Of a DNA stretch of 64,000 nt, positions 566 through 17,317 are shown piece after piece. Location: NCBI GenBank assembly GCA_001792115.1, contig MGFX01000006.1, positions 146,537 to 210,536 of the forward strand. The letters are read 5' to 3'. The position numbers and the translations under genes are program-made. The notes beneath the pieces were generated by a model that ran no database searches, was not told the origin of the DNA, and saw only the letters and a list, made by a program, of their open reading frames with translations. The stretch's first letter is position 1; each line of letters opens with the position of its first letter. The stretch is from Candidatus Woesebacteria bacterium RBG_16_42_24. GTDB taxonomy: Bacteria; Patescibacteriota; Microgenomatia; UBA8517.

Positions 566-2341
566 CTACCAACTTCCTCCTCCCCCTCCGCCAAAACCAC
601 CTCCAGAGCCTCCCCCACCTCCAAAACCTGATCCCCCACTCGCGGCACCCTTTGGCCTTGAGGCAGAAATTCCCGAGCCGAGTCCGGTATTAATATAGCC
701 AAGAGAGGCGTTAAAGTGAACGATATTTAAATTAGTTCCATGATACCAATTCAAGTTTTTAATATCAGCGTCTTTGAAGGCTTGAATAAACTTTTCGGTT
801 ATGCCAAAGGCGATAGCGTAAGGAAGAACCTCCTCAAAAAAGTTGTGTTTCTCATAGATTTTCGTTCGCCAGGAGCCTAAGTTTAGAACTTCTTTAAAAC
901 CTACTATTTCGGCTAAAGCCTTTCTTCCTTTACCAGTCCTTGCCGGCATAAAAAATGAGAAGGCGATGATAATAAGTCCTGAACCTATAAAAGCAATGAA
1001 AAAAGAGGCGGGGCTTACGATAAATGGTGCAATTCCGCCTCCCAAAAAAAATCCCGCAAAAATAGTGATTATTCCCACTGCCAAGTACTTATTTCTAACC
1101 TCGTCCGGCCGGCCCTCAAAATAGCCATTCATAGTTAGATCTTCATATAGATTCTTTTCCGCCTCTTTCAAGCTTTGGTAGGCTTTTGGATGGAGTTTGG
1201 TTAGTACCGCGGGAATATCTCGCTTTTCGCTAAATAACATATCAAGAACTGAAAGCTCGTAGGGCTTTAAGACCCCCTCATCTTTTTTGGTATAGTGAAG
1301 GGTAAACTTAGTTTTTCCGAAAAGCCCTTTTTTTGATTCCTCTTCGATTTTTATAAATCCTCGCCTCGCCAAATCTATGACTGTCGCCGTAATGTCTCGA
1401 AGGTGTGCTTTCTCGTCTACCAAGGTTCCAACTTCTCCCGGAGATAAATTCCTAGGGGGACTCACGCTTGTTGATATTGCGTTCAGGTTCTCCAAAAGTG
1501 GAACAGGCTCCTCCCCCAGTTGCTCGTTGAAGATGTCGATGAATTTTTTATCACGACCCTTTAGCATATAAAGCCTAAACATGATTATTAAGACCGCAAT
1601 CGGGACCAAATAAAGCCAATTGTCCAAAAGAAAAATGAGGAGTTTTTGGGCTGATGTGGGGAAAGTTAAGGCGGATTTATCAAGGGCAACTGCAACTGTT
1701 AAACCTTGTTGGGGGTCAACATTTTTTGTAGTGAACGTGGCGGTATCTCTCTCCGAGGTCTTTGTGCAGTTTTCTTCTTGACTACCGAAATAGCCGGTAA
1801 AACAGGCGGTATTTATGAGGCTTCCGTCTGGAGTATAGACGTTGGCAGTTGCAGAAAGTATCGAGACAGGCCAATCGTTACCGGTTACATTCCAATAGAG
1901 CTCGGCAGACTCACCTGGCGTGGTAATAACCTGGCTAACTTTGTAGGTGATTACGTAGGTATTTCTCCCTGTTATTGTCAGATCCGGATCGCCGATTCTA
2001 ATTTTTGTGTTATTTCCTTCCTTGGTGATTTTTGTTTCTAACTTCTTCCCACCGGAATCCGTGACAGAGAGAAGGTTGAGGCGAATATTTAAGTTATTGC
2101 CATATTGTGTTTGGTATTTGACGGGGATTGTCCGATAAATTCCATGCTTTTGCAACCCCGCAAAGTCCACGATTATCGTTTCCGTGACGCCAACCGTGGT
2201 GTCTTGATTAACTCTAATGTCCGCCTTAAAGCTTTCAATTATCCAACCAGTATCATCTTGGGCATAGACTTTTCCTTGGGTTGCAAGAAAGAAAAGAAGA
2301 AAAACACTAAACACGCTAAAAATTTTCCTTAAAAGGAGCAT
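566..2341 (-). CDS. DUF2207-family membrane protein with Gly-rich C-terminal tail
   Basis: 591 aa; signal peptide, central TM segments, terminal GGSGFGGGGGSGGGFGGGGGGSW tail typical of DUF2207. Confidence 0.6.
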   Translation of the reverse strand: MLLLRKIFSVFSVFLLFFLATQGKVYAQDDTGWIIESFKADIRVNQDTTVGVTETIIVDFAGLQKHGIYRTIPVKYQTQYGNNLNIRLNLLSVTDSGGKKLETKITKEGNNTKIRIGDPDLTITGRNTYVITYKVSQVITTPGESAELYWNVTGNDWPVSILSATANVYTPDGSLINTACFTGYFGSQEENCTKTSERDTATFTTKNVDPQQGLTVAVALDKSALTFPTSAQKLLIFLLDNWLYLVPIAVLIIMFRLYMLKGRDKKFIDIFNEQLGEEPVPLLENLNAISTSVSPPRNLSPGEVGTLVDEKAHLRDITATVIDLARRGFIKIEEESKKGLFGKTKFTLHYTKKDEGVLKPYELSVLDMLFSEKRDIPAVLTKLHPKAYQSLKEAEKNLYEDLTMNGYFEGRPDEVRNKYLAVGIITIFAGFFLGGGIAPFIVSPASFFIAFIGSGLIIIAFSFFMPARTGKGRKALAEIVGFKEVLNLGSWRTKIYEKHNFFEEVLPYAIAFGITEKFIQAFKDADIKNLNWYHGTNLNIVHFNASLGYINTGLGSGISASRPKGAASGGSGFGGGGGSGGGFGGGGGGSW

Positions 2342-2389: not shown

Positions 2390-3157
2390 ATGAAAGCCAT
2401 TAAAATCCTATTTTTATTTCTTCTACTTATAGCAGTCGGGGTAGTAATGTTTAAAATAGGCAACGCAGTTCCTAAAAAAGAAACACCACTCCCCGCTCCT
2501 AAAGTAATGGGGGTATCGGAAGTTGTAGTGGCCGGCGAAGAATATTCCTTTACGACCATTAAAGTGACAGATGCTTCAAGAGTAAAACTTTTGCCGAACT
2601 TTTTGGAACAAAAGACGTCAGAAGAAATTATTAATGAAGGAAGATGTAAAAATTTGGTGAACGGAGGATTCTATTCGGAGAAATTTACACCCATTGGACT
2701 TTTTATAAGTGAGCGAGAAGAAATACAAAAGAGACAGATAAATGCAACATTTAACGGATTTTTTCTAGTAAGCGAAGGAAATATTCCTGAGATTTTAAGA
2801 GAGACTCGGGATGAGGAATATAGAATTGGTCTTCAAGCTGGCCCTATCCTCATTTTGAATTCCACCCCTTTAATACTTAAGCTTAAAGAGGAAGAGCAGG
2901 AGAAAGATAGAAGGGTTATTGTCGCGCTAAATGATAAAGGAGAGACATTTTTTATTGTCGTATTTACACAAAACTCTGTTTTTTCAGGACCGACCCTAGC
3001 ATCTCTACCTGAACTTTTACAAGAAGTTCAAAATTCCTTAGGCGAAAATTTTGTTTCTGCGCTAAACCTGGACGGAGGTGCTGCATCAACTTTTTGGGGT
3101 GAGGGGGCAAGACTCAAAGAGCTATCCCCTATCGGAAGTTACTTCTGTATAAACTAA
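2390..3157 (+). CDS. Phosphodiester glycosidase family protein (DUF2233/NAGPA-like)
   Basis: 255 aa; N-terminal signal anchor; C-terminal LNLDGGAASTFW motif resembles the DUF2233 LDGGGSS signature. Confidence 0.5.
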   Translation: MKAIKILFLFLLLIAVGVVMFKIGNAVPKKETPLPAPKVMGVSEVVVAGEEYSFTTIKVTDASRVKLLPNFLEQKTSEEIINEGRCKNLVNGGFYSEKFTPIGLFISEREEIQKRQINATFNGFFLVSEGNIPEILRETRDEEYRIGLQAGPILILNSTPLILKLKEEEQEKDRRVIVALNDKGETFFIVVFTQNSVFSGPTLASLPELLQEVQNSLGENFVSALNLDGGAASTFWGEGARLKELSPIGSYFCIN

Positions 3158-3160
3158 TAT

Positions 3161-3178
3161 CTCGCGCAGGAAATGGGG
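3161..3178 (+). repeat. Intergenic motif family 1 copy a (CTCGCGCAGGAAATGGGG), abuts stop of the SET gene
   Basis: Core CGCGCAGGAAATGGGG read directly; followed immediately by TTA (reverse-complement stop of 3179..3679). Confidence 0.7.
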
Positions 3179-3679
3179 TTAGTGTTTTCTTGTCAATCTG
3201 TCTATTTCGTTTTCGTGTTCCTTAACAAACCAGTTGTCTAAATATGGCAGATACCTAATCTGTAAATCTTTCGGCAACTTGAAAAAATTGCCTTGATATA
3301 CTCCTCTACAATTTTTACTTCCACAATGACAATCAAAAGTTCCATCGTTATATCCATTTATAGAATAATCATAAGTAATTTCATCGCCTTTTTTAATATC
3401 TTTCATCGCAAAAACTTTCCTTTTACCTTCTATTGTTTTTACATAAGTTGAGGAGTCACAAGAGTGATTGATGTGTCTTTCCGGAGGTTGCATCAAAACT
3501 ATTTTCCCATCGGCTAAATAGTCGCATTCATACTCATGTTGGTATTTTGTTAATTTGGAAGGATCTTTTACTGCGTGCGAGTCATTAATTTCTAAAACAA
3601 TTTCTCCTTTTTTGATGTTTTCTAAAGCATATACGCCTTTTCCTTGAATTTTAGAAACTTTTACTGTAACCCTTTTCAT
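3179..3679 (-). CDS. SET-domain protein (lysine methyltransferase fold) with post-SET Cys cluster
   Basis: 166 aa; NHSCDSS, GDEITYDY and CHCGSKNCRG motifs. Confidence 0.7.
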   Translation of the reverse strand: MKRVTVKVSKIQGKGVYALENIKKGEIVLEINDSHAVKDPSKLTKYQHEYECDYLADGKIVLMQPPERHINHSCDSSTYVKTIEGKRKVFAMKDIKKGDEITYDYSINGYNDGTFDCHCGSKNCRGVYQGNFFKLPKDLQIRYLPYLDNWFVKEHENEIDRLTRKH

Positions 3680-3707
3680 AATTGAAGTATATTTAGAAAT
3701 TTTTAAA

Positions 3708-3728
3708 CACCCGAAGGAAATGGGCCCC
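3708..3728 (+). repeat. Intergenic motif family 1 copy b (CACCCGAAGGAAATGGGCCCC)
   Basis: Degenerate copy of the GCAGGAAATGGGGCC core, 12 nt from the stop of 3741..4070. Confidence 0.55.
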
Positions 3729-3740
3729 TATGTTTGTCTT

Positions 3741-4070
3741 TTAGAACAGCTTGCCACCAAGCGGAACATCTTTGTCTGGTACAACAAGAATTGCTTTTCC
3801 TTCTTCATCAGGAAAACCCAAAGTTAGGACTTCTGATACTGCGGGTCCCATCTGAAAAGGTGGAAGGTTCACAACTCCTGCAATTAACCTTCCTTTAAGT
3901 TCTTCTTTTTTGTAATGAGTGAATTGACCGATTGATTTTTTGACTCCGATTTCCGGGCCAAAATCTACCTCCATCTTGTAACATGGTTTACGCGCCTCGG
4001 GGTAATCCTCAACCTTTACAATTTTTCCCACCCTTATGTCAAGTTTATTGAAGTCGTCAATAGTAGCCAT
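3741..4070 (-). CDS. csaA: tRNA-binding protein (CsaA/Trbp111-like OB-fold, EMAP domain)
   Basis: 109 aa; LDIRVGKIVKVEDYPEARKPCYKMEVDFG is typical of CsaA/YgjH tRNA-binding domains. Confidence 0.7.
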   Translation of the reverse strand: MATIDDFNKLDIRVGKIVKVEDYPEARKPCYKMEVDFGPEIGVKKSIGQFTHYKKEELKGRLIAGVVNLPPFQMGPAVSEVLTLGFPDEEGKAILVVPDKDVPLGGKLF

Positions 4071-4100
4071 TTCGAATATTATAGCAGTTTAATTTTTAGA

Positions 4101-4132
4101 GCCCACGCAGGAAATGGTTTTGAAATTGGGGG
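4101..4132 (+). repeat. Intergenic motif family 1 copy c (GCCCACGCAGGAAATGG...GGGGGC)
   Basis: ACGCAGGAAATGG core with flanking GCCC/GGGC arms; lies in the divergent region upstream of 3741..4070 and 4228..5091. Confidence 0.55.
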
Positions 4133-4227
4133 CCTGCTTACAGGGACGGTCCTTGTAAGCGACTACCAAAGCTGACGGTTGCATATCTGAATTTTTCCTA
4201 AACACCGGAAAAGATATAATAATAACT

Positions 4228-5091
4228 GTGATTATAAAAGGCAAAAAAGAATTTATTGACCAGATAACGAAATTCGACATAAAGACCAAATATGCAGTTG
4301 TAAAACCTAATTGGAAAAGTAACCATGAAGGCGAATTCACCGAGCCAGAAATACTTAGCTGGCTTTTTGAGGCTCTGCCAAACCAGAAAAAGATTGTCGT
4401 AGAAAGCTATACTCCCTGGAGAGGATTAAAATTTATTGAATCCGATTCTCATAAAGGAAAGGGAGTAACTCTTGATGGTGGTAAGGCTCACTGGGATTTC
4501 TACAAGGAGCAAGACCAGCATTTTTTAGGTACAACAGGAATAGGTAACGTATTAAAGAAACACAAAGTAGACTATATAAATATTACAAACGAAGTTTGGG
4601 GTGGAAAATGTATTGGTCCGGAGGTTATAAAAAAGGAAGTTACTGATAAGAAAGAAAGGATTACGTGGGAGGAGCTCTACTCCTATATACCTCAAAAACT
4701 TTATCAAATACGAAAATCGTCAACGCTAATCAGCTTGTCCAAAATTAAAATTGAGGAGGGTATCCAGGCAATCTATATTAGTATGTCAATAAAAAATCTT
4801 TTTGGACTTATTCCCCATCCATCTCGCTGGATACCTTTCCACGGAGAAAATCACGAGTCGGTATCAGAGGTAACGCGCGATATTTACACACTCTACACGC
4901 TTTTATTCGATAAGACCCTCTGGGTTGCTGAAGGCATTAAAACTTTAGTTAGAAATTATTGTGAGCCTCACCAAAAGGTGGTCGAAAATCAAAACTTATT
5001 ATTCGTTGGTCGGAGTGCAAAACAAGTTGATTCTGAAGCCTGCAAAATTCTTGGAATAGACCCCGCTAAGGTTCCCCATCTCCACTTATAA
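4228..5091 (+). CDS. Hypothetical protein, possibly DUF362-like
   Basis: 287 aa; N-terminal YAVVKPNW resembles the DUF362 start; otherwise unrecognised. Confidence 0.3.
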   Translation: MIIKGKKEFIDQITKFDIKTKYAVVKPNWKSNHEGEFTEPEILSWLFEALPNQKKIVVESYTPWRGLKFIESDSHKGKGVTLDGGKAHWDFYKEQDQHFLGTTGIGNVLKKHKVDYINITNEVWGGKCIGPEVIKKEVTDKKERITWEELYSYIPQKLYQIRKSSTLISLSKIKIEEGIQAIYISMSIKNLFGLIPHPSRWIPFHGENHESVSEVTRDIYTLYTLLFDKTLWVAEGIKTLVRNYCEPHQKVVENQNLLFVGRSAKQVDSEACKILGIDPAKVPHLHL

Positions 5092-5113
5092 CTACGTAAG
5101 AAAATTCACACTA

Positions 5114-5129
5114 CTCGCGCAGGAAACGG
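5114..5129 (+). repeat. Intergenic motif family 1 copy d (CTCGCGCAGGAAACGG)
   Basis: Between the convergent stops of 4228..5091 and 5139..5819. Confidence 0.6.
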
Positions 5130-5138
5130 TCTTCGTCT

Positions 5139-5819
5139 TTATGCTAAGACATAATCCGCGTAAGCGATTGTAAGAAGCTCGTCTTCGACTATTTGCATCT
5201 CTGCAAGCCTTATGTCCTCTTCGCTGTACTCTTCATCTGGCCCGAGCTCTAAACGGTCTCTAACCATAAAATCTGTTGGTTTGTAGTGGTCTGGAAACAC
5301 GCGTTTTGCAACAAGAATGTCTTTCAGAAAAGCCGACCATTCCACCGTCTCACTACTTTGGGTCAAACTGCTTTTCTCGATGGAACCAACCTCTTTTGCC
5401 AAGTCTCTAAGTGGTTGAGGAATCCTATGCCACCCTGCGGGCTGCCTGCTATTTCGTATTACCTTTTCACCGCCGCCTAAATCTTTACCAATGAGTATTG
5501 TGGGGAAACCTCTGGCATTAACCGGAGTTAGAACAAACCCGACTGAAATTCCGCCGTCAGGCGTTTTGACGGAGAACTGCTTAGGATCTGTTTGCACAAT
5601 TCGAATTGCAAGGAGTTTGTTATCGATTGTCGGAATGGAGAAAAACTTTTCTCCCAAAACCCAGCCGCCAAACTGCCTAAAGTCGTAGCCCGGCCAGTCG
5701 CTAAAATCCCAATCACTACCTTCAGGTTCGGCTCCGGTAAGATAGTCCTTATTGGACATAATTTCACCAAGGATATCCGAAAACGAAAGCGTGGTTTCCT
5801 CTTCTTCTTTCCCTGCCAT
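5139..5819 (-). CDS. Hypothetical protein
   Basis: 226 aa ORF, acidic N-terminus, no recognisable motif. Confidence 0.4.
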   Translation of the reverse strand: MAGKEEEETTLSFSDILGEIMSNKDYLTGAEPEGSDWDFSDWPGYDFRQFGGWVLGEKFFSIPTIDNKLLAIRIVQTDPKQFSVKTPDGGISVGFVLTPVNARGFPTILIGKDLGGGEKVIRNSRQPAGWHRIPQPLRDLAKEVGSIEKSSLTQSSETVEWSAFLKDILVAKRVFPDHYKPTDFMVRDRLELGPDEEYSEEDIRLAEMQIVEDELLTIAYADYVLA

Positions 5820-5863
5820 ATATTTTTAGAAAAAGTGAGGGAAATTATAACATAAATAATTCG

Positions 5864-5886
5864 GAGGCCGCGCAGGAAATGGGGCC
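5864..5886 (+). repeat. Intergenic motif family 1 copy e (GGAGGCCGCGCAGGAAATGGGGCC), abuts stop of 5887..6165
   Basis: Full core flanked by GGCC arms; TTA stop follows directly. Confidence 0.7.
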
Positions 5887-6165
5887 TTATGCCGAAGATT
5901 GAATTTGGAGTTTCTTTTCAACTTTTGAAATTCTAGGTTCGTGATCTTCATAAACTTTATGAGTTAATATTTCCTGCCCTTCTCTTATTACCTTGAGCTC
6001 GCCCATTACCTCATCCATTTTTCCATAAAATTCATCTTTTGTTGGAAGGTGACTGATATCATCTTTAGTTGCGATTCTGTTTTCAATAGCATCATCCAAC
6101 CGTTCGTCAAATGTAACTTCCATTAAGTCTTTAATCGCCATGAGATCTTTGTTTGTAAGTGCCAT
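5887..6165 (-). CDS. Hypothetical small protein
   Basis: 92 aa, charged and helical, no known motif. Confidence 0.35.
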   Translation of the reverse strand: MALTNKDLMAIKDLMEVTFDERLDDAIENRIATKDDISHLPTKDEFYGKMDEVMGELKVIREGQEILTHKVYEDHEPRISKVEKKLQIQSSA

Positions 6166-6211
6166 AGCGCTATTTAACTATAGAACGCCTATTTCGTCAA
6201 GCAAAAGATAT

Positions 6212-6235
6212 GTGGCCCGCGCAGGAAATGGGGCC
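6212..6235 (+). repeat. Intergenic motif family 1 copy f (GTGGCCCGCGCAGGAAATGGGGCC)
   Basis: Full core with GGCCC/GGGCC arms in the divergent region between 5887..6165 and 6263..7255. Confidence 0.7.
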
Positions 6236-6262
6236 TCAATGTATCCAATTTGGTAAACTTAC

Positions 6263-7255
6263 TTGATGGATAAAAATATAAAGCCGGGTTACAAAAAATA
6301 TTTGGCTTCAATGCACGGAAAGTTTATTACCCCCGATGATGTGATTAGAGAGGTTGTAAAAGAGGGGGCTGGTAATTTGGTATCGAAAAAACGAATTATT
6401 GCAGGCGAAGTGAGTGAGGTATACAACATTATTTTAGAAAACAAAAAGCCCGTAATCCTTCGAATTTCAAGAAGTCCACGGCCAAACTTTCTTCAAGATA
6501 AGTGGGCAATGGAGCAAGTCAAAAAGCTGGGTGTTCCTGTTCCTGAAATCCTACTTATTAAATACCTAATTGTTGGGAATCAAGAACTTTCCTTTTGTTT
6601 AATGGAGAAAGCGGAAGGAAAATCACTCGAGAGGGGGGGCATAAATTTTGAATCGCTTCCCGAAGCAATAAGGAAATCGTATATCTTACAAGCTGGAGAA
6701 ATTCTATCCAAAATTCACTCCATTGAAACCCTAGGTTTTGGATGGATTATTGGAGAGGGAAAGGCGGAATACAACACCTCTGAAGAAATTATTGACGAAC
6801 TGTTAAAAAGAAAAGAGAGGATATATAAGGTCGCTGATGCTCAAAAGTTTGATCGACGGCTTGTCGACGAAGCCCTGGACATTGTAGGCAGATTCAGGGA
6901 AAGATATTCTCACATTAACCCCCACCTAAACCATGCAGACTACGGGCACAAGCACTTTATGGTAAAGAAGGGAAAAATTGTGGCTGTTTTGGATTGGGGT
7001 GGAGTACGAAGCGATTCACCAATATATGATTTCGCTAATTGGGATTATTGGTACGGGCATTACATTCCGACCAATTGGTTAAAAGAAGGCTACCAGAACA
7101 AACAACTATTTGACGAGAATTTTGAAGACACCCTTCACGTTATGAGAATCATGAAAGGGATAGAAATAGCCGATTGGTACGAGTCGCAAAACTATGGAGA
7201 GGCAGTTGAAAAAGCACTTGCCAAGTTGACCGATGACTTGAATTACTTCAAGTGA
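6263..7255 (+). CDS. Phosphotransferase-family protein (APH/choline-kinase-like fold)
   Basis: 330 aa; LNHADYGHKHFMV (Brenner-like HxD motif) and VLDWGG (DxG) arrangement of the APH/kinase-like family. Confidence 0.55.
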   Translation: MMDKNIKPGYKKYLASMHGKFITPDDVIREVVKEGAGNLVSKKRIIAGEVSEVYNIILENKKPVILRISRSPRPNFLQDKWAMEQVKKLGVPVPEILLIKYLIVGNQELSFCLMEKAEGKSLERGGINFESLPEAIRKSYILQAGEILSKIHSIETLGFGWIIGEGKAEYNTSEEIIDELLKRKERIYKVADAQKFDRRLVDEALDIVGRFRERYSHINPHLNHADYGHKHFMVKKGKIVAVLDWGGVRSDSPIYDFANWDYWYGHYIPTNWLKEGYQNKQLFDENFEDTLHVMRIMKGIEIADWYESQNYGEAVEKALAKLTDDLNYFK

Positions 7256-7276
7256 TTATTAGCATTTAAGCGCTTA

Positions 7277-7295
7277 CAGCGAAGGAAGTGGGACC
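7277..7295 (+). repeat. Intergenic motif family 1 copy g, degenerate (CAGCGAAGGAAGTGGGACC)
   Basis: Matches copy b (CGAAGGAAaTGGGcCC); sits 2 nt from the RidA stop. Confidence 0.45.
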
Positions 7296-7297
7296 AT

Positions 7298-7648
7298 TTA
7301 GCCTTTTGAAGCTATCAAACTAATTTCAATTTTCGCACCCATTGGCAGCTCCTTCACACATACAGTTTCTCTGGCTGGATAAGGTTCCGAAAAATAACTT
7401 CCATAAATTTCGTTAACATCCCCGTATAAGGACATGTCTGTTACATAAATCGTGGTTTTAACAACGTCGGCAAAAGTCACACCCGCTTTTTCAAGTACCC
7501 CTTTCAAATTTTTCATTACCTGATGGGTTTGCTCTTTTATACTTCCCTCCAAAAGTTTTCCCTCCGGAGTCAAATAAACCTGACCTGATGTAAAGACAAA
7601 ATTGTCTTTTGTAACGGAGGGAGAAAAAGGGAGTTTTGGGTGACCCAT
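7298..7648 (-). CDS. ridA: RidA/YjgF-family protein (reactive intermediate deaminase)
   Basis: 116 aa; C-terminal PARETVCVKELPMGAKIEI matches the RidA signature. Confidence 0.8.
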   Translation of the reverse strand: MGHPKLPFSPSVTKDNFVFTSGQVYLTPEGKLLEGSIKEQTHQVMKNLKGVLEKAGVTFADVVKTTIYVTDMSLYGDVNEIYGSYFSEPYPARETVCVKELPMGAKIEISLIASKG

Positions 7649-7670
7649 ACGAGCTGATTATATCAAAACC

Positions 7671-7689
7671 TGTGTGCAGGAAGTAGGTT
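7671..7689 (+). repeat. Intergenic motif family 1 copy h, degenerate (TGTGTGCAGGAAGTAGGTT)
   Basis: 13/18 match to copy a; just 3' of the stop of 7697..8242. Confidence 0.4.
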
Positions 7690-7696
7690 CTTGTAA

Positions 7697-8242
7697 TTAT
7701 TCCAGAAGATATTCCCAGCCTGGTTGCCAAGCTTTTTTCTTTCTCCAATCCTCGGCAAAAGCTTGCTTCCAAGTTTTTCCTTTTATAAGTACATCCAAAG
7801 CCAGCTGAGGTGCTTTATGGGCAACAATGGCGACATGTTTTCCATCGTAATTTTCTTTTAAGAAATCCAAAAAATCCTGAATTCTTTTCTCAACATCTTC
7901 GTAGCTTTCACCATTGGGAAACCTTTTTGTAATATTTTCTTCTTGCTTCGGCTCGACAATCTTCGATGGTTTGCCGTTTAAATCCCCATAATTACACTCA
8001 CGTAATCTCTTATCGTAAATAATTTCAACAATCCCGCCAAAAGTGAGATTTGCTGAATCTGCCGATCTTTTCAAATCAGAACAGAAGACAACATCAAATT
8101 TCTTGCCCTTTACTTGCTTTCTCAGCTCTTTCGACTCCCGTACTCCTTTTTCAGAAAGTTCTGCATCCGACCAACCAGAAGATATCCCCGTCTCATTATC
8201 GGTAGTTGTCCCATGAACAAAATATGTAATTTTTACAGGCAT
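7697..8242 (-). CDS. Histidine phosphatase family protein (phosphoglycerate-mutase-like)
   Basis: 181 aa; N-terminal FVHGTTTDNE (RHG-like) and SDLKRS motifs. Confidence 0.6.
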   Translation of the reverse strand: MPVKITYFVHGTTTDNETGISSGWSDAELSEKGVRESKELRKQVKGKKFDVVFCSDLKRSADSANLTFGGIVEIIYDKRLRECNYGDLNGKPSKIVEPKQEENITKRFPNGESYEDVEKRIQDFLDFLKENYDGKHVAIVAHKAPQLALDVLIKGKTWKQAFAEDWRKKKAWQPGWEYLLE

Positions 8243-8261
8243 AAATAAATTTATGACATCC

Positions 8262-8412
8262 TCCGCGGACTAAAAGTCCGCGGTTTCCCTTCAAAGGAGG
8301 ATGATACTTCGACAAGCTCAGTATCATTCTGAGTATTATCGAAGAATGACATATCAGTTTCAATTCATCCCCGATTTAATCGGGGTGTTCTTGAAATCTG
8401 TTATAAACTTGA
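8262..8412 (+). repeat. Structured repeat element R, full copy 2 (nested hairpins + conserved core)
   Basis: CATCCTCC-[GCGGAC...GTCCGC]-GGAGGATG nested hairpin, then the CTTCGA...TCGAAG hairpin, then core ATGACATATCAG...CCCCGATTtaaTCGGGG...TGTTATAAA. Confidence 0.6.
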
Positions 8413-8421
8413 TTTATTCTA

Positions 8422-8450
8422 CTTCGGGGCTAATTTGAAGACAAATTATT
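8422..8450 (+). repeat. Intergenic motif family 2 copy a (CTTCGGGGCTAATTTGAAGACAAATTATT), abuts stop of the HAD gene
   Basis: Read directly; ends 1 nt before the CTA (TAG) stop of 8452..9102. Confidence 0.7.
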
Positions 8451-8451
8451 T

Positions 8452-9102
8452 CTACAATATTTTCTTAATTTCTTTTAATTCTTTAATCATTTTGAAGGCT
8501 AGTGACTCCAGCTCGGGGTGGGGATCTTTGTTGACGGCAATGCCGTAGTGAAGTTCTCGGAAAAGTGCTATGTCGCTATCACCGTCTCCGATTACGGAAC
8601 ATCTCTCTTTCTCTATATTATTTCTTGAAATAAATTCGTTAAATTGCTCAAGCTTTTTTGCCGCCTGGTCAGCATAATAATTAAGATCCACTAGGTTGCC
8701 CTCTTTATCCCAAATTAAATCTGTATTTGCATACCAGTGGGGTATACCCAGCCTTTCTGCAATGGCCTCGACATAAAGGTCAACAGATCCGGAAATTAAA
8801 CACAGTCGGTAGAACTTTTTAAGATACTCTACAATTTCAACTACATCCTTTTTAAATTTCCAAGATCTAAACATTTTTTCCATATATTTTTTATTCGCGT
8901 TTCGCGTACTTCTCCAAAGACCAATTAATTCTTTCTTTGCGTCAAGGTAAGACAACTTACCTTTTCTGAAACGTTCTTCAAATATATCAACATGGGTAGC
9001 ACGGGAAGCTCCCAACCCTTCGGTGATTTCGTACCAGGAAATGGTTTCAGTCAAAGTCCCGTCTATATCTAAAATAACTGTATCAATTTTTTCTTTTAGC
9101 AT
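8452..9102 (-). CDS. HAD-superfamily hydrolase (HAD-IB / phosphoserine-phosphatase-like)
   Basis: 216 aa; ILDIDGTLT motif I and IGDGDSDIALF motif IV. Confidence 0.75.
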   Translation of the reverse strand: MLKEKIDTVILDIDGTLTETISWYEITEGLGASRATHVDIFEERFRKGKLSYLDAKKELIGLWRSTRNANKKYMEKMFRSWKFKKDVVEIVEYLKKFYRLCLISGSVDLYVEAIAERLGIPHWYANTDLIWDKEGNLVDLNYYADQAAKKLEQFNEFISRNNIEKERCSVIGDGDSDIALFRELHYGIAVNKDPHPELESLAFKMIKELKEIKKIL

Positions 9103-9138
9103 TCTTTTTCAAAATTTTATCACGATCCTGAGTTTTAC

Positions 9139-9175
9139 CGAAGGACTCCGAAGCTACTTTGAAGACAAATTATTT
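9139..9175 (+). repeat. Intergenic motif family 2 copy b (CCGAAGGACTCCGAAGCTACTTTGAAGACAAATTATT), overlaps stop of the VOC gene
   Basis: GAAGACAAATTA runs into the TTA stop of 9170..9589. Confidence 0.7.
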
Positions 9176-9589
9176 TATGGATTCTTCGAATTTTTTGTGA
9201 GGAGAGTCCGGCTGAGCTTGGACCATTTCTAATTTATTTCCCTCTGGGTCAAAAAGAAATGCTGTAAGATTATTGTCTCGCAGTTTTAAAATTTCAGAAT
9301 CAAAAGCCACCCCCCTCCCCTCCATTTCTTTCTTGGTATTGGCTAGATCATCAACAGTGAAGCTTATGTGACGAACTCCCAGACTTTTTGTATCATCGAA
9401 GACTGGTCTTTTTTCGCCGCCTAAGCAAAGTTCTAAATATTGTCCTTCGGAGATATGAAGAAAGACTATTCTTAAAGACCCGTCGTCATTCGTAATTCGG
9501 AAAGCCTCGGTCAATCCCAATCCCCTGCAATAATAATCCAGCATCTTATCAATGTCTTTTACTCTTATAGCGACGTGTCCAAATCTCAT
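9170..9589 (-). CDS. VOC-family protein (glyoxalase/bleomycin-resistance/dioxygenase fold)
   Basis: 139 aa; MRFGHVAIRVKDIDKMLDYYCRGLGL N-terminal VOC pattern. Confidence 0.7.
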   Translation of the reverse strand: MRFGHVAIRVKDIDKMLDYYCRGLGLTEAFRITNDDGSLRIVFLHISEGQYLELCLGGEKRPVFDDTKSLGVRHISFTVDDLANTKKEMEGRGVAFDSEILKLRDNNLTAFLFDPEGNKLEMVQAQPDSPHKKFEESIK

Positions 9590-9605
9590 AGATTAATTCT
9601 AAGTT

Positions 9606-9630
9606 GGAACCGATCTCAAGACAAATTTTA
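9606..9630 (+). repeat. Intergenic motif family 2 copy c (GGAACCGATCTCAAGACAAATTTTA)
   Basis: AAGACAAATT core overlapping the TTA stop of 9628..10083. Confidence 0.55.
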
Positions 9631-10083
9631 AAATCTGCTTTCGAGCCAGAGCTTGGTGAAGAAGATTGTAAAAATTATAGAAACTACAGTGACACACTGC
9701 CAGATTATTTGGTGTATAAACCAAACAGAATCATTATGGAAAATGGAATGAAACGGAAGCTTTTCGGGCGGATTTCTGTTTATAGTGGAGAATTGCTGGT
9801 TAAACCAATAAATAGTTTCACCCAGACTTCTAACCACCCAAAAAACGGAGATAATTAGAAGGAATAAATACCAGTCGTTTAGCAAATAAGAAACCAGCGA
9901 AGAAGCAATCCAAAATGGGCCAAAAACGACCGCATCTCCCCAAGCGATAATTCCTAATAGATTAAGGTTTGGAGTAAGGCCGTAAGCGTTTTTGCGATAT
10001 TTACATTCATAATATCCCTTCACAAATACCCCAAGATTTACCAGAGCGTAGGCCCAAATAACGAGTTGCTGCCAATTCTCCAT
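9628..10083 (-). CDS. Hypothetical integral membrane protein
   Basis: 151 aa with 4 predicted hydrophobic helices; no known motif. Confidence 0.45.
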   Translation of the reverse strand: MENWQQLVIWAYALVNLGVFVKGYYECKYRKNAYGLTPNLNLLGIIAWGDAVVFGPFWIASSLVSYLLNDWYLFLLIISVFWVVRSLGETIYWFNQQFSTINRNPPEKLPFHSIFHNDSVWFIHQIIWQCVTVVSIIFTIFFTKLWLESRF

Positions 10084-10095
10084 ATCTGAATTGTA

Positions 10096-10124
10096 CCTCG
10101 GAGCTAATTTGAAGACAAATTATT
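10096..10124 (+). repeat. Intergenic motif family 2 copy d (CCTCGGAGCTAATTTGAAGACAAATTATT), abuts stop of 10123..10488
   Basis: Near-identical to copy a; ends at the TTA stop. Confidence 0.7.
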
Positions 10125-10488
10125 AAGTCTGATTTGCGGTTTCTTTATAAGCAGAAAATAAATGGTTTATAGCTTGCTTAGCCATACGTTTATCTTGAAT
10201 TAACTCCCACATAACAATAGCTCCTTGGAGACCAAGTAATAATTTGTATAATGAATACGGGACGGTCTGCGGATTACCCATTATCTCCTGTCTTGCCTGT
10301 GCCCAACTGATAGCGATTTCCCTGGGTGATATATGCTTATCCGCTATTCTTTCGACAAGGACTCTACAAACATCGTAAGGGTATCCACTAGCCAGTGAAC
10401 TATGCTTCCTGAGACGGTGCATTAACTCGCCAGAAGATGGCATATTTATTACCTCTTCCACCTCTCCGACCCTTTTTGCTTCAATCAT
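10123..10488 (-). CDS. Hypothetical protein
   Basis: 121 aa ORF without recognisable motifs. Confidence 0.4.
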   Translation of the reverse strand: MIEAKRVGEVEEVINMPSSGELMHRLRKHSSLASGYPYDVCRVLVERIADKHISPREIAISWAQARQEIMGNPQTVPYSLYKLLLGLQGAIVMWELIQDKRMAKQAINHLFSAYKETANQT

Positions 10489-10520
10489 GAAAAGAATTAT
10501 ATCACTATTTAGAGTGAATT

Positions 10521-10772
10521 CTATTTTTTGCCATCGAGACGGGCAACTGGTTTTACCCCCTTAAAAGTGCCGTTTAAAAATTGAGTTACTAGCCGGTTTA
10601 CTTTTTCTCTATATAACCAGGCGTAAGCGGAACTAAGTGTTACCTTGGATGAATGTAAAGAGCTTCCGGAAATTAGACGTACATCTTCAACGGTAGGATG
10701 GATACCTCTTTTTATGGTTTGGACAACCAAAATAATATCATCTCGAGATGGTAAATGACTTCTCTCGTGCAT
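10521..10772 (-). CDS. Hypothetical protein (start moved to internal ATG, MHERSHLP...)
   Basis: ORF track begins at a TTG; an in-frame ATG at 10770-10772 is the more plausible start. Confidence 0.35.
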   Translation of the reverse strand: MHERSHLPSRDDIILVVQTIKRGIHPTVEDVRLISGSSLHSSKVTLSSAYAWLYREKVNRLVTQFLNGTFKGVKPVARLDGKK

Positions 10773-10799
10773 AATTTTTGCGGGCAATGGCTAATTCTA

Positions 10800-10828
10800 C
10801 TCCGAAGCTAATTTGAAGACAATAATTT
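10800..10828 (+). repeat. Intergenic motif family 2 copy e (CTCCGAAGCTAATTTGAAGACAATAATTT)
   Basis: In the divergent region between 10521..10787 and 10903..11595. Confidence 0.65.
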
Positions 10829-10902
10829 AGCTTAAGTCTAAAATTGGTTAAGTAGGCTTCACTAGACATTTAACAATCTAAGGTAAATAATTGCTCTGAA
10901 AT

Positions 10903-11595
10903 ATGGAACTAAAAATACACGATTTTCAATTATCAATTCTGCGGGAGCTTCTTTTTAGACCCAACGCGCGCTTTCGGGATTTAAAGAAAGTAGATATTAC
11001 GAATGACCACTTTACTTTTCATTTAAAACAGCTGGTTAAGGAAGGATTGGTTATAAAACAAAACAAGGTTTACAGTCTTACAGACGAAGGAAAAGAGTTT
11101 GCAAATAGAATGGATACTGAGGCACTTAGGATTGAGAGACAGGGGAAAATAGCAGTCGGGCTTCATGCGGTAAGACTTAGAAATGGTAAGACGGAACACC
11201 TTGTACATCAAAGGCTTAAAGAACCCTTTTATGGCTGGTACGGATCCCAGAGCGGAAAAGTAAGGTGGGGAGAAAATCCTTTGGACTGCGCTAAAAGAGA
11301 ATTTAGAGAGGAAACCGGGCTTACAGGAAAATTTACACTTAAGGGAATTGTTCACTACCACCACTTTCATCAAGACGGAAGGTTGCTTGAAGATAAATAT
11401 TTTTGGATTTATAAGGTGGAAAACACAAAGGGAGATTTTATGGAAGAGGTCCCAGAGGGTAAAAATATATGGATAAGTGAGGCCAAATATCGAAAACTGA
11501 AAAACGTTTTTGCAACTTTTGACGAAGTTCGCGAGGTATTAAATAGTAAAAAGCTACTTTATTTAGATAGAGCAAGATTTGTTAAGAGCTACTAA
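10903..11595 (+). CDS. Winged-helix / NUDIX hydrolase fusion protein
   Basis: 230 aa; Nudix box GKVRWGENPLDCAKREFREETGL (GX5EX7REUXEEXGU); N-terminal HTH-like region. Confidence 0.7.
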   Translation: MELKIHDFQLSILRELLFRPNARFRDLKKVDITNDHFTFHLKQLVKEGLVIKQNKVYSLTDEGKEFANRMDTEALRIERQGKIAVGLHAVRLRNGKTEHLVHQRLKEPFYGWYGSQSGKVRWGENPLDCAKREFREETGLTGKFTLKGIVHYHHFHQDGRLLEDKYFWIYKVENTKGDFMEEVPEGKNIWISEAKYRKLKNVFATFDEVREVLNSKKLLYLDRARFVKSY

Positions 11596-11624
11596 AAAGC
11601 TCTCGGTGAGGTTTTAGGTCTTTT

Positions 11625-11650
11625 CCCCGAAGCTACTTTGAGGACAACCC
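11625..11650 (+). repeat. Intergenic motif family 2 copy f, degenerate (CCCCGAAGCTACTTTGAGGACAACCC)
   Basis: CCGAAGCTACTTTGA-GGACAA matches copy b; abuts the CTA stop of hppA. Confidence 0.55.
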
Positions 11651-13890
11651 TAGCTGGTGACCGAGACTCGGTATTTTTTGCTCTGCCAGATTCCCCAGAC
11701 GAAAATCGCGATAAGAACGGCAATTGCCACTTTTGCCCCAAAAGTTCCGTGGTACTGGACGATAACCGGCGCGGCAATAAGGCTGACCAGGTTCACAACT
11801 TTAATCATAGGGTTAAGCGCAGGTCCGGCAGTATCCTTTAGTGGATCCCCTACCGTATCTCCCTCAACCGAAGCCTTGTGGGCGTCAGATCCCTTACCTC
11901 CAAAGTGGCCGTCCTCGATAAACTTCTTGGCATTATCGAGTGCGCCTCCGGCAACAGACATATAAACTGCTAAAAGTTGTCCCGTGAGTATTACTCCCGC
12001 AAGAAATGCTCCCAAAGCCTCAACTTCGAAAATAAGTCCCACAAGCAGTGGCAGGGAAACCGAAATAGCCACCAAACTTATTAAGTCTTTTTGGGCTGCG
12101 GCGGTTGTGATACTCACAACCTTTTCGTATTCGGGAGTTTTGGTCCCTTCCATTACCCCAGGAACCTTAAACTGTTTTCTTACTTCTTCAACCACCTTAA
12201 TGGCTGCTCTTGCAACAGCCTTAATGGCAATTGCGGCAAAAAGAAGGGGCAAGGCTCCCCCCAGCAAAAATCCAATTACGGTTGGAAGAGAAGAAATTCG
12301 AATTGATTCAAGAACCTGAACTCCTATTCTTTCCTGTACGATCCCCACGTCTGTTATGAATGAAAAGAAAAGGGCGGTTGCCGCAATAACCGCGGAAGCA
12401 ATTGCCAGCTGTTTGGTTATCGCTTTGGTGGTATTTCCAACAGAGTCCAAGTCCGCCATTATTTTTGCTGCGCTTTCGGGAACCCCAGCCATCTCCCCTA
12501 TTCCGTTGGCATTATCTGCAATTGGTCCGAATGCATCCATCGCTACGTTATTTCCGGTCAGGGACAACATTCCAATTCCGATCATCGCTACCCCGTATAA
12601 CATGTAAATGGGCGGCATTCCCCAGTAGATAAGAAGGCTTGAGGCAAGGGCCGCGCAAATTACGAATACGCTCCAGACCGAAGATTCCATACCAACCCCG
12701 AGACCCGAAAGGATTGTGGTTGCACTTCCGGTTTTGGTTGACTCCGCAATCTCAAGAACGGGCCGCCTCTTGTAAGAAGTGAAGTAAGAGGTAAGAGGAT
12801 TAAATGCAACCGCCAGGGCGATTCCGACGGCATTAAGAAGAGCTAGTTTCCACTCCCCCGCATAAAACATTGCAAAGGCAAAAGCCGAAAGAACCGTAAA
12901 AACACTTGAGAGTTCATAGCTTCTAAACATGGCTTCTTCCGCGTCTTTAGCACGCAGCCATTTCGCTGGAAATTTTTCCCAAATGGGAACGGCTAGCGTT
13001 CCGATGATTGAGGAAACAACTCCAATTGCGCGGACCACTAAGGGGTAAACTATCCAGAAAGACTGACCCGTTAAGTGATAAAGAACAAGCCCTAAAATTA
13101 AAGAAGAAACAATTGTTACTTCGTAAGACTCGAAGATATCGGCTGCCATTCCGGCGCAGTCCCCGACGTTATCCCCGACAAGGTCTGCTACAACCCCCGC
13201 ATTTCTCGGATCATCCTCGGGTAAGTTTTTCTCGACTTTACCCACAAGGTCTGCTCCCATGTCAGCGGCCTTGGTATAAATTCCTCCCCCTATTCTCATA
13301 AAAAGGGCAACGAGTGTTCCTCCGAAACCAAAACCCAGAAGTGCGTCGGGCGCAGCTTTGCCAAAAACCATAAATATAATTGTTCCCCCGAGAAGCCCGA
13401 GTCCGTCCGTAAGCATTCCGGTAAATGTTCCCGCCCTGTAGGCTGTAGTTAAGGCGCCGTTATAATCCCCTTTTACTGCCTTTGCGGTGACCCTCACATT
13501 TCCCTCAATGGCAACCCTCATTCCGAGTTGTCCGACAAGAGTGGAGAAAGTTGCACCAACAATAAAGGCGATAGTTCGGCCTAAAGCGACTATCAAAGTT
13601 GCATTGTCGCCAAATCTGGCAACTGCTTCGCTAGACGGCGGAACAACGTAGACGCTTAAGAAGAGGATCACAATTAATGCAAGAAGCACAAGAGTAATTG
13701 TTTTTAGTTGTTTTCTAAGGTACCCCTCCGCTCCCCGCTTAATAGCTTTCCAGACGGTTTGCATTTTTTCGGTGCCCTTATCCTCTGAAGAAGTTTTCTT
13801 CCAAAGCCAGAGGGCATAGATAAGGGCCGAAAAGGCAACGCCTATTACTCCCCAAATCATCATTTGCTCAAAAGCGGCTAATTCATTCAT
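11650..13890 (-). CDS. hppA: Membrane-bound K+-dependent H+/Na+-translocating pyrophosphatase
   Basis: 746 aa; multiple TM helices; GDNVGDCAGMAADIFESYEV and DLVGKVE motifs diagnostic of V-type PPases. Confidence 0.93.
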   Translation of the reverse strand: MNELAAFEQMMIWGVIGVAFSALIYALWLWKKTSSEDKGTEKMQTVWKAIKRGAEGYLRKQLKTITLVLLALIVILFLSVYVVPPSSEAVARFGDNATLIVALGRTIAFIVGATFSTLVGQLGMRVAIEGNVRVTAKAVKGDYNGALTTAYRAGTFTGMLTDGLGLLGGTIIFMVFGKAAPDALLGFGFGGTLVALFMRIGGGIYTKAADMGADLVGKVEKNLPEDDPRNAGVVADLVGDNVGDCAGMAADIFESYEVTIVSSLILGLVLYHLTGQSFWIVYPLVVRAIGVVSSIIGTLAVPIWEKFPAKWLRAKDAEEAMFRSYELSSVFTVLSAFAFAMFYAGEWKLALLNAVGIALAVAFNPLTSYFTSYKRRPVLEIAESTKTGSATTILSGLGVGMESSVWSVFVICAALASSLLIYWGMPPIYMLYGVAMIGIGMLSLTGNNVAMDAFGPIADNANGIGEMAGVPESAAKIMADLDSVGNTTKAITKQLAIASAVIAATALFFSFITDVGIVQERIGVQVLESIRISSLPTVIGFLLGGALPLLFAAIAIKAVARAAIKVVEEVRKQFKVPGVMEGTKTPEYEKVVSITTAAAQKDLISLVAISVSLPLLVGLIFEVEALGAFLAGVILTGQLLAVYMSVAGGALDNAKKFIEDGHFGGKGSDAHKASVEGDTVGDPLKDTAGPALNPMIKVVNLVSLIAAPVIVQYHGTFGAKVAIAVLIAIFVWGIWQSKKYRVSVTS

Positions 13891-17197: not shown

Positions 17198-17317
17198 TTA
17201 TACCCCAAAATGAGGGTAAATGGAAGGAAAAAATCAGTATTCCGGTACTCCGGTATTCCAGTTTTCAGTTTATCGGTTTACCGGTTGACCAGTCTGACTG
17301 GACTACTGGAATACTGG

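Follow-up and report, generated by a model that had tools for sequence, protein, structure and literature searches.

A putative gene-cassette array with two families of short junction sites on a Woesebacteria chromosome

[quoted passage not shown] The window, which means the whole stretch of DNA analysed, has 64,000 nucleotides (nt) and corresponds to positions 146,537 to 210,536 of the forward strand of contig MGFX01000006.1 (assembly GCA_001792115.1). Known attC sites are 57-141 nt long. As in sedentary integrons and CALINs, the units of the locus are mostly single genes, each with a terminal site of recombination type that often overlaps the stop codon; the sites have one orientation, genes are occasionally reversed, and a distinct anchor stands at the proximal end. 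The site is split, its right end belonging to the next unit, and the content, rich in small enzymes and in toxin-antitoxin pairs, differs from strain to strain at one fixed place on the chromosome. The locus is probably a chromosomal cassette array whose units are exchanged at two families of short sites, here called A and B. It works like a sedentary integron but is not one, as attC and the integron integrase IntI are lacking. There are no attC R and L boxes, the site has about 30 nt rather than at least 57 nt, its loop and core are conserved in sequence and not in structure only, and the two site families lie in separate zones. Instead of a single promoter Pc, each junction may form its own promoter from a -35 box of the site and a -10 box of the cassette. 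CALINs without a nearby intI are common, and complete integrons were not found in very small genomes (PMC4889954); the host of the array belongs to the candidate phyla radiation (CPR) and has a genome of about 1 Mb, the size class without integrons in that survey. In the literature on integrons and cassette arrays in CPR, Patescibacteria, Microgenomates, and Woesebacteria, no description of such a system was found. In the array, the principle of the integron recurs in a new lineage, with sites of a new type and no IntI, and the chance that it represents an independent, new recombination system is substantial.

Tandem staphylococcal cassette chromosome (SCC) and pseudo-SCC elements arise by successive insertions at the 3' end of rlmH and are bounded by direct repeats of the integration site, and many of them have no recombinase of their own. 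Insertion at the 3' end of a conserved housekeeping gene is a feature shared with the present locus. However, SCC elements are 10-60 kb long and are moved by Ccr large serine recombinases, whereas the array units have 0.3-1.5 kb and the only large serine recombinase seen (in locus L260) is not associated with arrays elsewhere. Sites of HUH enzymes (ends of IS200/IS605 elements, oriT) consist of a short hairpin with the exchange point a few nt 3' of the hairpin foot, and they are strand-asymmetric. The hairpin of B with its nearby exchange point and with G.T pairs on one strand resembles these sites, as well as repetitive extragenic palindromes (REP) and bacterial interspersed mosaic elements, but no HUH or RAYT gene was seen, the array sites are not dispersed, and the units carry cellular genes and not transposases. 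Modules between pdif sites of Acinetobacter (XerC/XerD) are likewise small accessory modules, brnTA and higBA among them, bounded by sites of about 28 bp; crossovers are centred on the sites, and there is no dedicated recombinase, the modules exploiting the housekeeping Xer. A dif-like parse of B into 9-11 nt, 6 nt (GTCTTC), and 11 nt, with the inner inverted repeats TAATTT/AAATTA, can be made. The pdif sites alternate in orientation (C/D, D/C) on plasmids (PMC13141974), whereas the array sites are chromosomal and all direct repeats. Furthermore, B has no similarity to the arms of the dif consensus, a long variant of B has 19 nt in the would-be 6-bp spacer, which a duplex Xer site should not tolerate, and A is without dif-like symmetry.

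Junction sites and probable exchange of units

The layout was established from an open reading frame (ORF) listing and a Pfam profile search of the proteins of the window. A preliminary description of this DNA had counted 16 small genes in the array; the 14 found here replace that count, while the functions it had named (SET methyltransferase, APH, RidA, His-phosphatase, HAD, glyoxalase, NUDIX) agree with Pfam. Its two motif families were recovered at their places by pattern scans. Family A reads CGMAGGAARYGG on the plus strand and CCCCATTTCCTGCGCG on the minus strand, and family B reads GCTAMTTTGARGACAA and TTGTCYTCAAAKTAGC, respectively. Seven A copies (at 3165, 3712, 4106, 5118, 5871, 6220, and 7280) have no mismatch to the degenerate pattern, against a chance expectation of 2.2 ± 1.5 in the whole window at one mismatch or less, and five B copies (at 8429, 9153, 10103, 10807, and 11632) are exact. 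A relaxed-anchor scan of the 64 kb gave no good A or B copy outside 3100-11700. Every copy in the window is on one strand (minus reading), whatever the direction of the neighbouring genes. The sites fall at junctions of gene units, and each reversed gene has a site of standard orientation on both sides, which looks like insertion of a unit at a site, the site being present on both sides afterwards. The motifs had been called stop-adjacent, which is correct for the minus-strand genes but not for the plus-strand DUF362, APH, and NUDIX genes, where sites lie near the start or the end of the gene. The single-gene modules proposed earlier are supported by the varied gene sets, the reordering, and the breakpoints on the motifs set out below, with the restriction that one unit of the window has two genes.

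Loci and contigs compared in the analysis are designated L001-L270. Relatives were found via a PPase search of genome contigs, via NAGPA homologues (L093-L096), and via a metagenome scan. The PPase search gave two close relatives, L016 (96% identical) and L013 (81%), the other matches being distant PPases from other phyla. The common backbone is gyrB...PPase, a variable part, and NAGPA-DUF2207...gyrA...xer. At least eight different gene sets occupy the PPase-NAGPA locus among related lineages, between the same two end sites: in every array on this backbone, the stop codon of the PPase is followed after 2-3 nt by the first B site, and that of NAGPA has an A site before it. Opposite the 14 genes of the window, L093, L016, L221, and L233 contain B, an AAA-ATPase (481 aa), RidA, and A; L094 and L095 contain B, UPF0182 (951 aa), B, a 153-aa gene, a racemase, and A; L096 contains B, a 117-aa gene, B, the 153-aa gene, the racemase, and A; and L232, L238/L223, L245, and L247 represent four further combinations. 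L013 has no sites and no array, with only two genes before gyrA.

Order varies as well as content. L252 is arranged as F11-B-F19+F12-B-F20r+F21r and L253 as F30-B-F20r+F21r-B-F19+F12-B-F74, so that the order is swapped. In L232, homologues of the 83-aa and 121-aa genes, which form one unit in the window, each make up a unit of their own; their order is reversed, and a B site separates them. F11, F18, F9, F35, the His-phosphatase unit, and the 151-aa gene all have different neighbours in different arrays. Since the order changes between arrays, loss alone cannot account for the variation. Downstream of shared genes, a motif is present at 88 of 148 junctions with a variable neighbour and at 7 of 61 with a constant one (odds ratio 11; p 5e-11, which is indicative only, the loci being partly redundant).

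The end points of exchange can be followed in several pairs. L267 and L268 are 99.7% identical over 12.1 kb, with a single mismatch in the first 11.1 kb, and are unrelated right after TTGTCTTCAAATTAGCTTC; the end point reads ...ATATATTTGTCTTCAAATTAGCTTC, and the far backbone is 74% identical. The PPase end of L096 is 99.7% identical to that of L093 and diverges at the first site after ...AGCTT, and the other side of L096 matches L094. This divergence is one base earlier than that of L267/L268, and both pairs part exactly at ...TTGTCTTCAAATTAGCTT(C). L267/L268 and L096/L093/L094 are mosaics with the joins at B sites, and this implies that diverged lineages have recently exchanged DNA. In comparison with L259, L253 has one extra unit of about 770 nt, placed after a short B site and with its own long B site at the 3' end; the loop insertion stays with the inserted unit, which places the exchange point to the right of the hairpin loop. 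Between A7 and A1 the window has 4.1 kb (six units) and L093 has 7 nt, and the A site of L093 resembles a fusion in which the left part is from A7 and the right part from A1. With all arrays taken together, the two flanks of the 16-nt B core are linked to different units: the left 14 nt follow the unit upstream (identity 0.68 vs. 0.44 background) and the right 14 nt the unit downstream (0.68 vs. 0.44-0.48). The right half CCCGAAG-TAGAAT accompanies the His-phosphatase unit in four contexts. Presence or absence of units and their reordering, the behaviour taken as the test of a cassette, were both found with junctions at the sites. Judging from these contigs, units have evidently been gained, lost, replaced, and reordered at the sites between related genomes.

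A degenerate 23-nt B pattern was present in 47 metagenome stretches, about 43 of them AT-rich (G+C 33-47%) contigs from groundwater or sediment. On most of these stretches, between 2 and 7 B sites share one strand; the largest numbers in any fetched stretch are 7 for B and 6 for A, and in several stretches the A zone lies downstream of the B zone. SET-domain homologues led to more arrays (L267-L270). The arrays are from 2 to more than 20 units long, the units being genes of 60-260 aa or gene pairs. Among their products are HTH/RelE-like, DUF433/PIN-like, and CopG/BrnT toxin-antitoxin pairs, NUDIX, glyoxalase, nitrilase, SRPBCC, SET, and acetyltransferase proteins, a content typical of cassette arrays. 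Other backbone neighbours of some arrays are a pilin gene and an SGNH-lipase-like gene (both labelled by reading of the translations) and a 113-aa gene. Matches on viral contigs (one B hit and single 15-nt A matches per contig) were judged to be chance, for B from the information content of the pattern. The GC skew was considered as an indicator of the replication strand; the array-forward strand is G-rich in 13 of 13 long loci, but this is confounded with coding-strand bias and was not used.

Anatomy of the sites

On the minus strand, a B site of the window reads as stop codon, 0-8 nt, and AATAATTTGTCTTCAAATTAGCTYCGRRG, followed by TAGAAT or TACAAT at B1, B3, B4, and B5. An A site reads (GG)CCCCATTTCCTGCGCG(GG) and lies 0-13 nt past the stop codon of a forward gene. 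Sites A1, A4, and A7 lie between convergent genes, and B6 faces the reversed NUDIX gene. The B site of about 30 nt can be written as AAATAATT-TGTCTTCAAA-TTAGCTTCGGAG. When 136 unique B sites were anchored on the 10-mer TGTCTTCAAA, conservation extended from -8 to +23 as AAATAATT-TGTCTTCAAA-TTAGCTTCGGAGTA; it peaks in the core, fades rightward, and spans the promoter spacer and the palindrome, not the hexamers alone. The intergenic DNA around B sites is unalignable even between homologous units.

The core of B is a perfect palindrome, TAATTTG-TCTT-CAAATTA, with a 7-bp stem. The predicted DNA fold of the short B has -4.1 kcal/mol (z -2.9) and that of the long B -8.2 kcal/mol (z -4.5). The long form, known from nine sites, has a 19-nt G+C-rich hairpin in the loop, TAATTTGTCC..GGGACGT-TCG-ACGTCC-TTCAAATTA. 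In the alignment of long B sites, 96.8% of cells pair, against 33-58% with the partners slid; G.T pairs occur on the minus-strand reading only, and there is one compensatory pair (A-T/G-C). Covariation as a proof of this structure was given up, not being significant with nine sequences, and the pairing is kept as a structural observation only. PPase-proximal B sites have no left arm and hence are unable to fold. The toleration of a 19-nt insertion in the loop fits a folded B site (hairpin or cruciform) better than a duplex site with a fixed spacer.

B sites also have promoter features. At 98 unique B sites from many arrays, the neighbouring genes are oriented ++ in 58 cases, +- in 17, -+ in 20, and -- in 3. 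A promoter scan of the window called exactly four of the B sites, B1, B3, B4, and B5, by a sigma-70-type TTGTCT-17 nt-TAnAAT; at B3 and B4 the ATG follows 6 nt past the -10 box (leaderless), and 6 nt is also the commonest distance from -10 to ATG at B sites. A -10 box at 16-18 nt is present at 35 of 78 sites (45%) before forward genes and at 3 of 22 (14%) before reversed genes (p 0.012). The sigma-70 pattern is not met at B2, B6, the other 43 of the 78 forward cases, and most sites before reversed genes. A B junction may work as a split promoter, in which the site gives the -35 box (TTGTCT) and the incoming unit the -10 box and the ATG. Most cassette genes of the window (3680-10800) and of related arrays look leaderless, with a -10-like hexamer (often TGnTAnAAT) 6-8 nt before the ATG and no Shine-Dalgarno sequence. 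No A or B site was called in a terminator scan of the window; the orientation of the sites is independent of gene direction, and they are not G+C-rich hairpins with a T tract that go with the gene. A covariance search against Rfam 15 gave no match at A or B, even at E ≤ 1-5.

The core (GAAC)CCATTTCCTSCGCG of the A site is conserved; the site also occurs in a long form, which contains an internal G+C hairpin. Units of the distal half are joined by A sites, the B zone preceding the A zone. At the transition, B is followed by A within 13-17 nt in L241 (3713-3765), L262 (2940-2995), L227 (768-820), L252 (5593-5685), and L247 (3439-3480). Such a close pair resembles an 'empty' unit of about 25 nt, which suggests that two arrays with separate entry points meet there.

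Proposed mechanism and rival explanations

In the proposed mechanism, a unit, read from PPase to NAGPA on the minus strand, would comprise a short 5' leader, one gene (sometimes two), and a conserved junction site. The hairpin part of B would belong to the 3' end of the upstream unit, and the sequence past ...TTAGC(TTC) to the downstream unit, the exchange point lying in, or at the right edge of, the core. The A junction would be (GAAC)CCATTTCC/TSCGCG, with a central exchange point at the slash. Site B6 at the PPase stop codon, which has the right part only, is read as attI-like and would be the fixed point of entry or anchor. Excision of units as circles and their reinsertion would be the work of a site-specific recombinase that acts in trans and possibly recognises the hairpin. 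The site is short and sharply defined and predicts exact circular junctions; the circle of the glyoxalase unit would join its 3' site ...TAATTTGTCTTCAAAGTAGC to its own 5' leader TTCCAACTTAGAATTAATCTATG. The enzyme-mediated, site-specific step is putative. Candidates for the enzyme are the housekeeping Xer acting in trans, as with the dif modules of Acinetobacter, or an unrecognised enzyme. RecA-dependent recombination on about 30 nt of identity after DNA uptake is less likely because of the selection on the site and the sharp end points.

The preliminary description had seen no recombinase in the window, and none is present among the window genes. A recombinase in the flanking genome, which it had proposed to look for, was indeed found, a 318-aa Xer-type tyrosine recombinase beyond gyrA, about 7 kb past the left end of the window; it scores about 250 bits on XerC/XerD models and 126 bits on the IntI model TIGR02249 (cut-off 265). 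Its link to the array is weakened by L013, discussed below. An Xer-like gene is about 7 kb away in the flanks of L001, L093, and L094, and the annotated flanks of four other arrays have no recombinase. IntI was not seen in the annotated flanks of L001, L093, L094, L267, L268, and L269, and no B-like site was found beside xer. A tblastn search of about 510 kb of array loci with Xer, gamma-delta resolvase, and IS200 TnpA detected only the syntenic Xer, but it is insensitive to serine recombinases, as it missed that of L260. Large or reversed ORFs beside arrays look like a pilin, a C39-like peptidase, an MFS transporter, an SGNH lipase, a phosphoribosyltransferase, ABC-F, and a PEP-utilising enzyme, and none like a recombinase. 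A recurrent reversed 195-aa gene, also considered, encodes a SET-domain protein. In the L093 lineage (L093 2047-4266, L221), the Xer-type gene carries an intein (739 aa; Intein_splicing and LAGLIDADG).

L260 has at 3458-4921 a large serine recombinase (Resolvase, Recombinase, and Zn ribbon domains) together with a 424-aa gene of no assigned function, directly after RidA, at the expected place of an A site; an inverted repeat of the recombinase gene's last 20 codons lies at 3340-3399. It was rejected as the enzyme of the arrays: there is no homologue in the other array loci, the family is very common in CPR, and the two closest homologues (80% and 73% identical) are in loci without A or B sites. 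It is probably an unrelated integrative element that landed in the array.

Several observations weigh against exchange at the sites by a dedicated system. The arrays have no linked recombinase; their loci, about 510 kb in all, contain only the syntenic Xer and the one of L260, and the position of Xer is likewise syntenic in the arrayless L013. Neither excised circles nor alternative junctions were observed, and all the evidence is comparative, from metagenome assemblies. Besides the partial redundancy of loci in the breakpoint statistics, 41% of variable junctions have no recognisable site at the thresholds used. One rearrangement, between L094 and L096, ends 29 nt outside the B site, so not all change at the locus is site-specific. 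Within the PPase lineage, the divergence of shared cassettes is close to that of the backbone, and differential loss could explain a part of the variation. The source population is invariant, with the same array at 99.9-100% identity in 12 contigs from ENA, NCBI, and JGI; of the strain differences anticipated earlier, those between relatives were found, and those within the source population were not. The covariation of the long B is thin, with one pair in nine sequences, and 184 of 500 shuffles equal it. A stem around the short A (GGCCC...GGGCC, AACCCC...GGGGTT in the window) was no better than in permuted flanks of 33 sites and was rejected.

It is unlikely that A and B are only local transcription signals (B a promoter or operator, A a 3'-end or insulator element) in an ordinary variable island, changed by homologous or illegitimate recombination and deletion in which the signals provide 20-30 nt of homology. 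Four window sites do have TTGTCT-17 nt-TAnAAT and a leaderless ATG, and 45% of sites before forward genes have the -10 box; A and B mostly lie a few nt from where the upstream forward gene has its stop codon (median 6 nt), a dedicated recombinase did not turn up, and one event ends outside a site. However, the orientation is fixed also in the +-, -+, and -- contexts (40 of the 98 sites), where adjacent genes cannot be served, A3 and A6 lie in divergent regions, and B6, without a -10 box, faces a reversed gene. Elsewhere in the window, over approximately 55 kb with numerous promoters, the sites are absent. Conservation covers the spacer and the palindrome, and neither motif is terminator-like; ordinary terminators, the explanation named earlier as fatal to the modules, do not fit this and the modular variation. 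The 19-nt hairpin after TTGTC would ruin the promoter spacing and yet recurs in nine sites, and the breakpoints are sharp at the core. A remnant integron of the CALIN type, with very divergent attC sites and IntI elsewhere in the genome or lost, is improbable. One ORF with a 3' site, a single orientation, an end anchor, cassettes of toxin-antitoxin pairs and small enzymes, arrays of 2 to more than 20 units, and the frequency of arrays without nearby intI in bacteria (PMC4889954) would suit it. Against it, the regular expression RYYYAAC...GTTRRRY, applied to both strands, has no match in the array and four in the rest of the window, B of about 30 nt has a perfect 7-bp stem and is sequence-conserved, and A has no supported stem. 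No IntI is in the annotated flanks, the sole tyrosine recombinase reaching 126 bits against the cut-off of 265, and complete integrons are absent from the very small genomes surveyed (PMC4889954). The earlier view that this is not a canonical integron holds on both of its grounds, as no attC box pairs are in the array and no recombinase is in the window.

Selfish repeats of the REP type or of the type of miniature inverted-repeat transposable elements (MITE), spreading between genes that are not themselves mobile, are a very improbable source of the motifs, in spite of their shortness, their intergenic position, the partly palindromic B, and the long and short forms. Each contig has the repeats at a single locus and in one orientation only, the genes between them differ and change order, their flanks co-segregate with neighbouring units, one unit was inserted with its own site, and individual sites are bordered by neither terminal inverted repeats nor target duplications; the MITE-like alternative raised in the preliminary description is not supported, given repeats confined to the array and to one strand. 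That the shuffling is an artefact of metagenome assembly, by chimeric joins at repeated sites, is hardly credible. Every compared sequence is a metagenome contig, and in L002 (NCBI scaffold, GCA_001792155.1) a run of N at 17198-17216, corresponding to window 9587-9624, lies exactly over B3, the only apparent difference within the population; assemblers appear to stumble at the site repeats. But the repeated core of at most 35 nt is far below the final k-mer (contig names with 'k141_', in our reading of these names), the window arrangement occurs in the 12 independent contigs from three sources, and alternative arrangements each occur in more than one assembly (L093/L016/L221/L233; L094/L095).

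Exchange of cassettes at A and B remains the preferred reading, and the earlier suggestion of a novel gene-shuffling system is supported by the differing gene sets of relatives, the recombination step still being putative; the regulatory role suggested as its alternative may also apply, as B appears to have a regulatory side as half of a promoter. More tentatively, and with somewhat less than even confidence, the arrays could be an undescribed capture system of Woesebacteria (CPR) unrelated to integrons. It would combine the hairpin B of about 30 nt and A, an anchor at the 3' end of a housekeeping gene, split promoters, and a recombinase encoded elsewhere (Xer on a folded site or an unrecognised one), and it would be a main route of accessory-gene exchange, including that between diverged lineages, in these genomes of about 1 Mb. 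Gain and loss of accessory genes in the tiny CPR genomes are poorly understood. If the proposal is true, a platform of about 1% of the genome, common to many groundwater Woesebacteria populations, gives a testable mechanism for strain-level variation, the exchanged cargo being small genes such as those for toxin-antitoxin pairs and for NUDIX, glyoxalase, and SET proteins. Transfer between diverged lineages would also be accounted for, as in the 12 kb at 99.7% that end at a site beside a 74% backbone, and the split-promoter junction would be a new way to express captured genes. With the housekeeping Xer or a new protein as its enzyme, the system would have arrived at the integron principle independently, and it could perhaps serve as a new recombination tool of compact size.

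Features of the window and minor observations

The features of the locus are listed in Table 1. The remaining part of the window is housekeeping, with gyrB, a type IV pilus cluster, ribosomal proteins, tRNA synthetases, RecG, and a DinB-type polymerase.

Table 1. Genes and junction sites at the PPase-NAGPA locus, in window positions
Feature	Positions	Strand	Basis or remark
DUF2207 membrane protein, left backbone	566-2341	-	Pfam
NAGPA-family protein (phosphodiester glycosidase), conserved backbone gene, distal array end	2390-3157	+	Pfam
A1, distal end site of array	3162-3181	-	Between SET and NAGPA stop codons; same closing site in L093, L094, L096, L223, L257
Cassette: SET-domain protein	3179-3679	-	Pfam; homologues in arrays L222, L239
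A2	3709-3728	-	
Cassette: tRNA-binding-domain protein	3741-4070	-	Pfam
A3	4103-4122	-	Divergent intergenic region
Cassette: DUF362 protein, reversed	4228-5091	+	Pfam
A4	5115-5134	-	Between convergent genes
Cassette: 226-aa protein, no assigned function	5139-5819	-	ORF listing
A5	5868-5887	-	
Cassette: 92-aa protein, no assigned function	5887-6165	-	ORF listing
A6	6217-6236	-	Divergent intergenic region, so at no gene's 3' end
Cassette: APH-family phosphotransferase, reversed	6268-7255	+	Pfam
A7 (CCCACTTCCTTCGCTG)	7277-7296	-	
Cassette: RidA (L-PSP)	7298-7648	-	Last unit before NAGPA in L093, L016, L221, L233
A8, degenerate eighth A copy (CCTACTTCCTGCACA)	7672-7690	-	Read from sequence
Cassette: histidine phosphatase	7697-8242	-	Pfam
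B1	8416-8450	-	Right half CCCGAAG TAGAAT travels with His-phosphatase cassette in L247, L228, L219
Cassette: HAD hydrolase	8452-9102	-	Pfam
B2	9140-9174	-	Glyoxalase stop codon TAA forms part of left arm
Cassette: glyoxalase/bleomycin-resistance family protein	9170-9589	-	Pfam
B3, degenerate B (TTGTCTTGAGATCGGTTCCAAC + TAGAAT)	9596-9630	-	
Cassette: 151-aa membrane protein	9628-10083	-	Homologues in other contexts in L094, L096, L238, L245
B4	10090-10124	-	Overlaps stop codon of 121-aa gene; TTGTCT-17 nt-TACAAT, 6 nt, ATG
Two-gene unit: 121 aa (10123-10488) and 83 aa (10521-10772), no assigned function	10123-10772	-	No site between the genes
B5 (AAATTATTGTCTTCAAATTAGCTTCGGAG + TAGAAT)	10794-10828	-	
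Cassette: wHTH-NUDIX, reversed relative to array	10903-11595	+	Pfam NUDIX and HTH; between B6 and B5
B6, array-proximal (TTGTCCTCAAAGTAGCTTCGGGG)	11625-11647	-	Without left palindrome arm and -10 box; same position filled in L093, L094, L096, L232, L238
H+-translocating pyrophosphatase (PPase), conserved backbone gene	11650-13890	-	Pfam H_PPase, E 3e-228; stop codon abuts first B site

The leader of the His-phosphatase gene (8243-8415) has a hairpin-rich insertion of about 150 nt in comparison with L247, L228, and L219, with ATAA at both ends. It contains two strong hairpins (8263-8283 and 8369-8385) with T tails on the plus strand, and has a weak HgcC-like match in Rfam (E 0.16, 21 bits vs. 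a gathering score of 50). The insertion in 8243-8451 may be a small RNA or an element of the MITE type.

On two unrelated backbones, a TrpR-related (YerC/YecD-like) gene is a few kb distant from the array, at 14050-14499 in the window and at 33-383 in L267. It was considered as a partner of the array and rejected, as it is absent in L093 and L094 and shows no consistent link; this is chance or a weak association. The closest relatives of the PPase beyond its own lineage are from Anaerolineae/Chloroflexota, with 72% identity, which suggests that the PPase gene itself may have been acquired horizontally. In L001, about 6 kb left of the window start, approximately 800 nt (1050-1849) between DUF5656 and a 238-aa gene upstream of xer have no ORF or tRNA, and this region is possibly a non-coding RNA gene.

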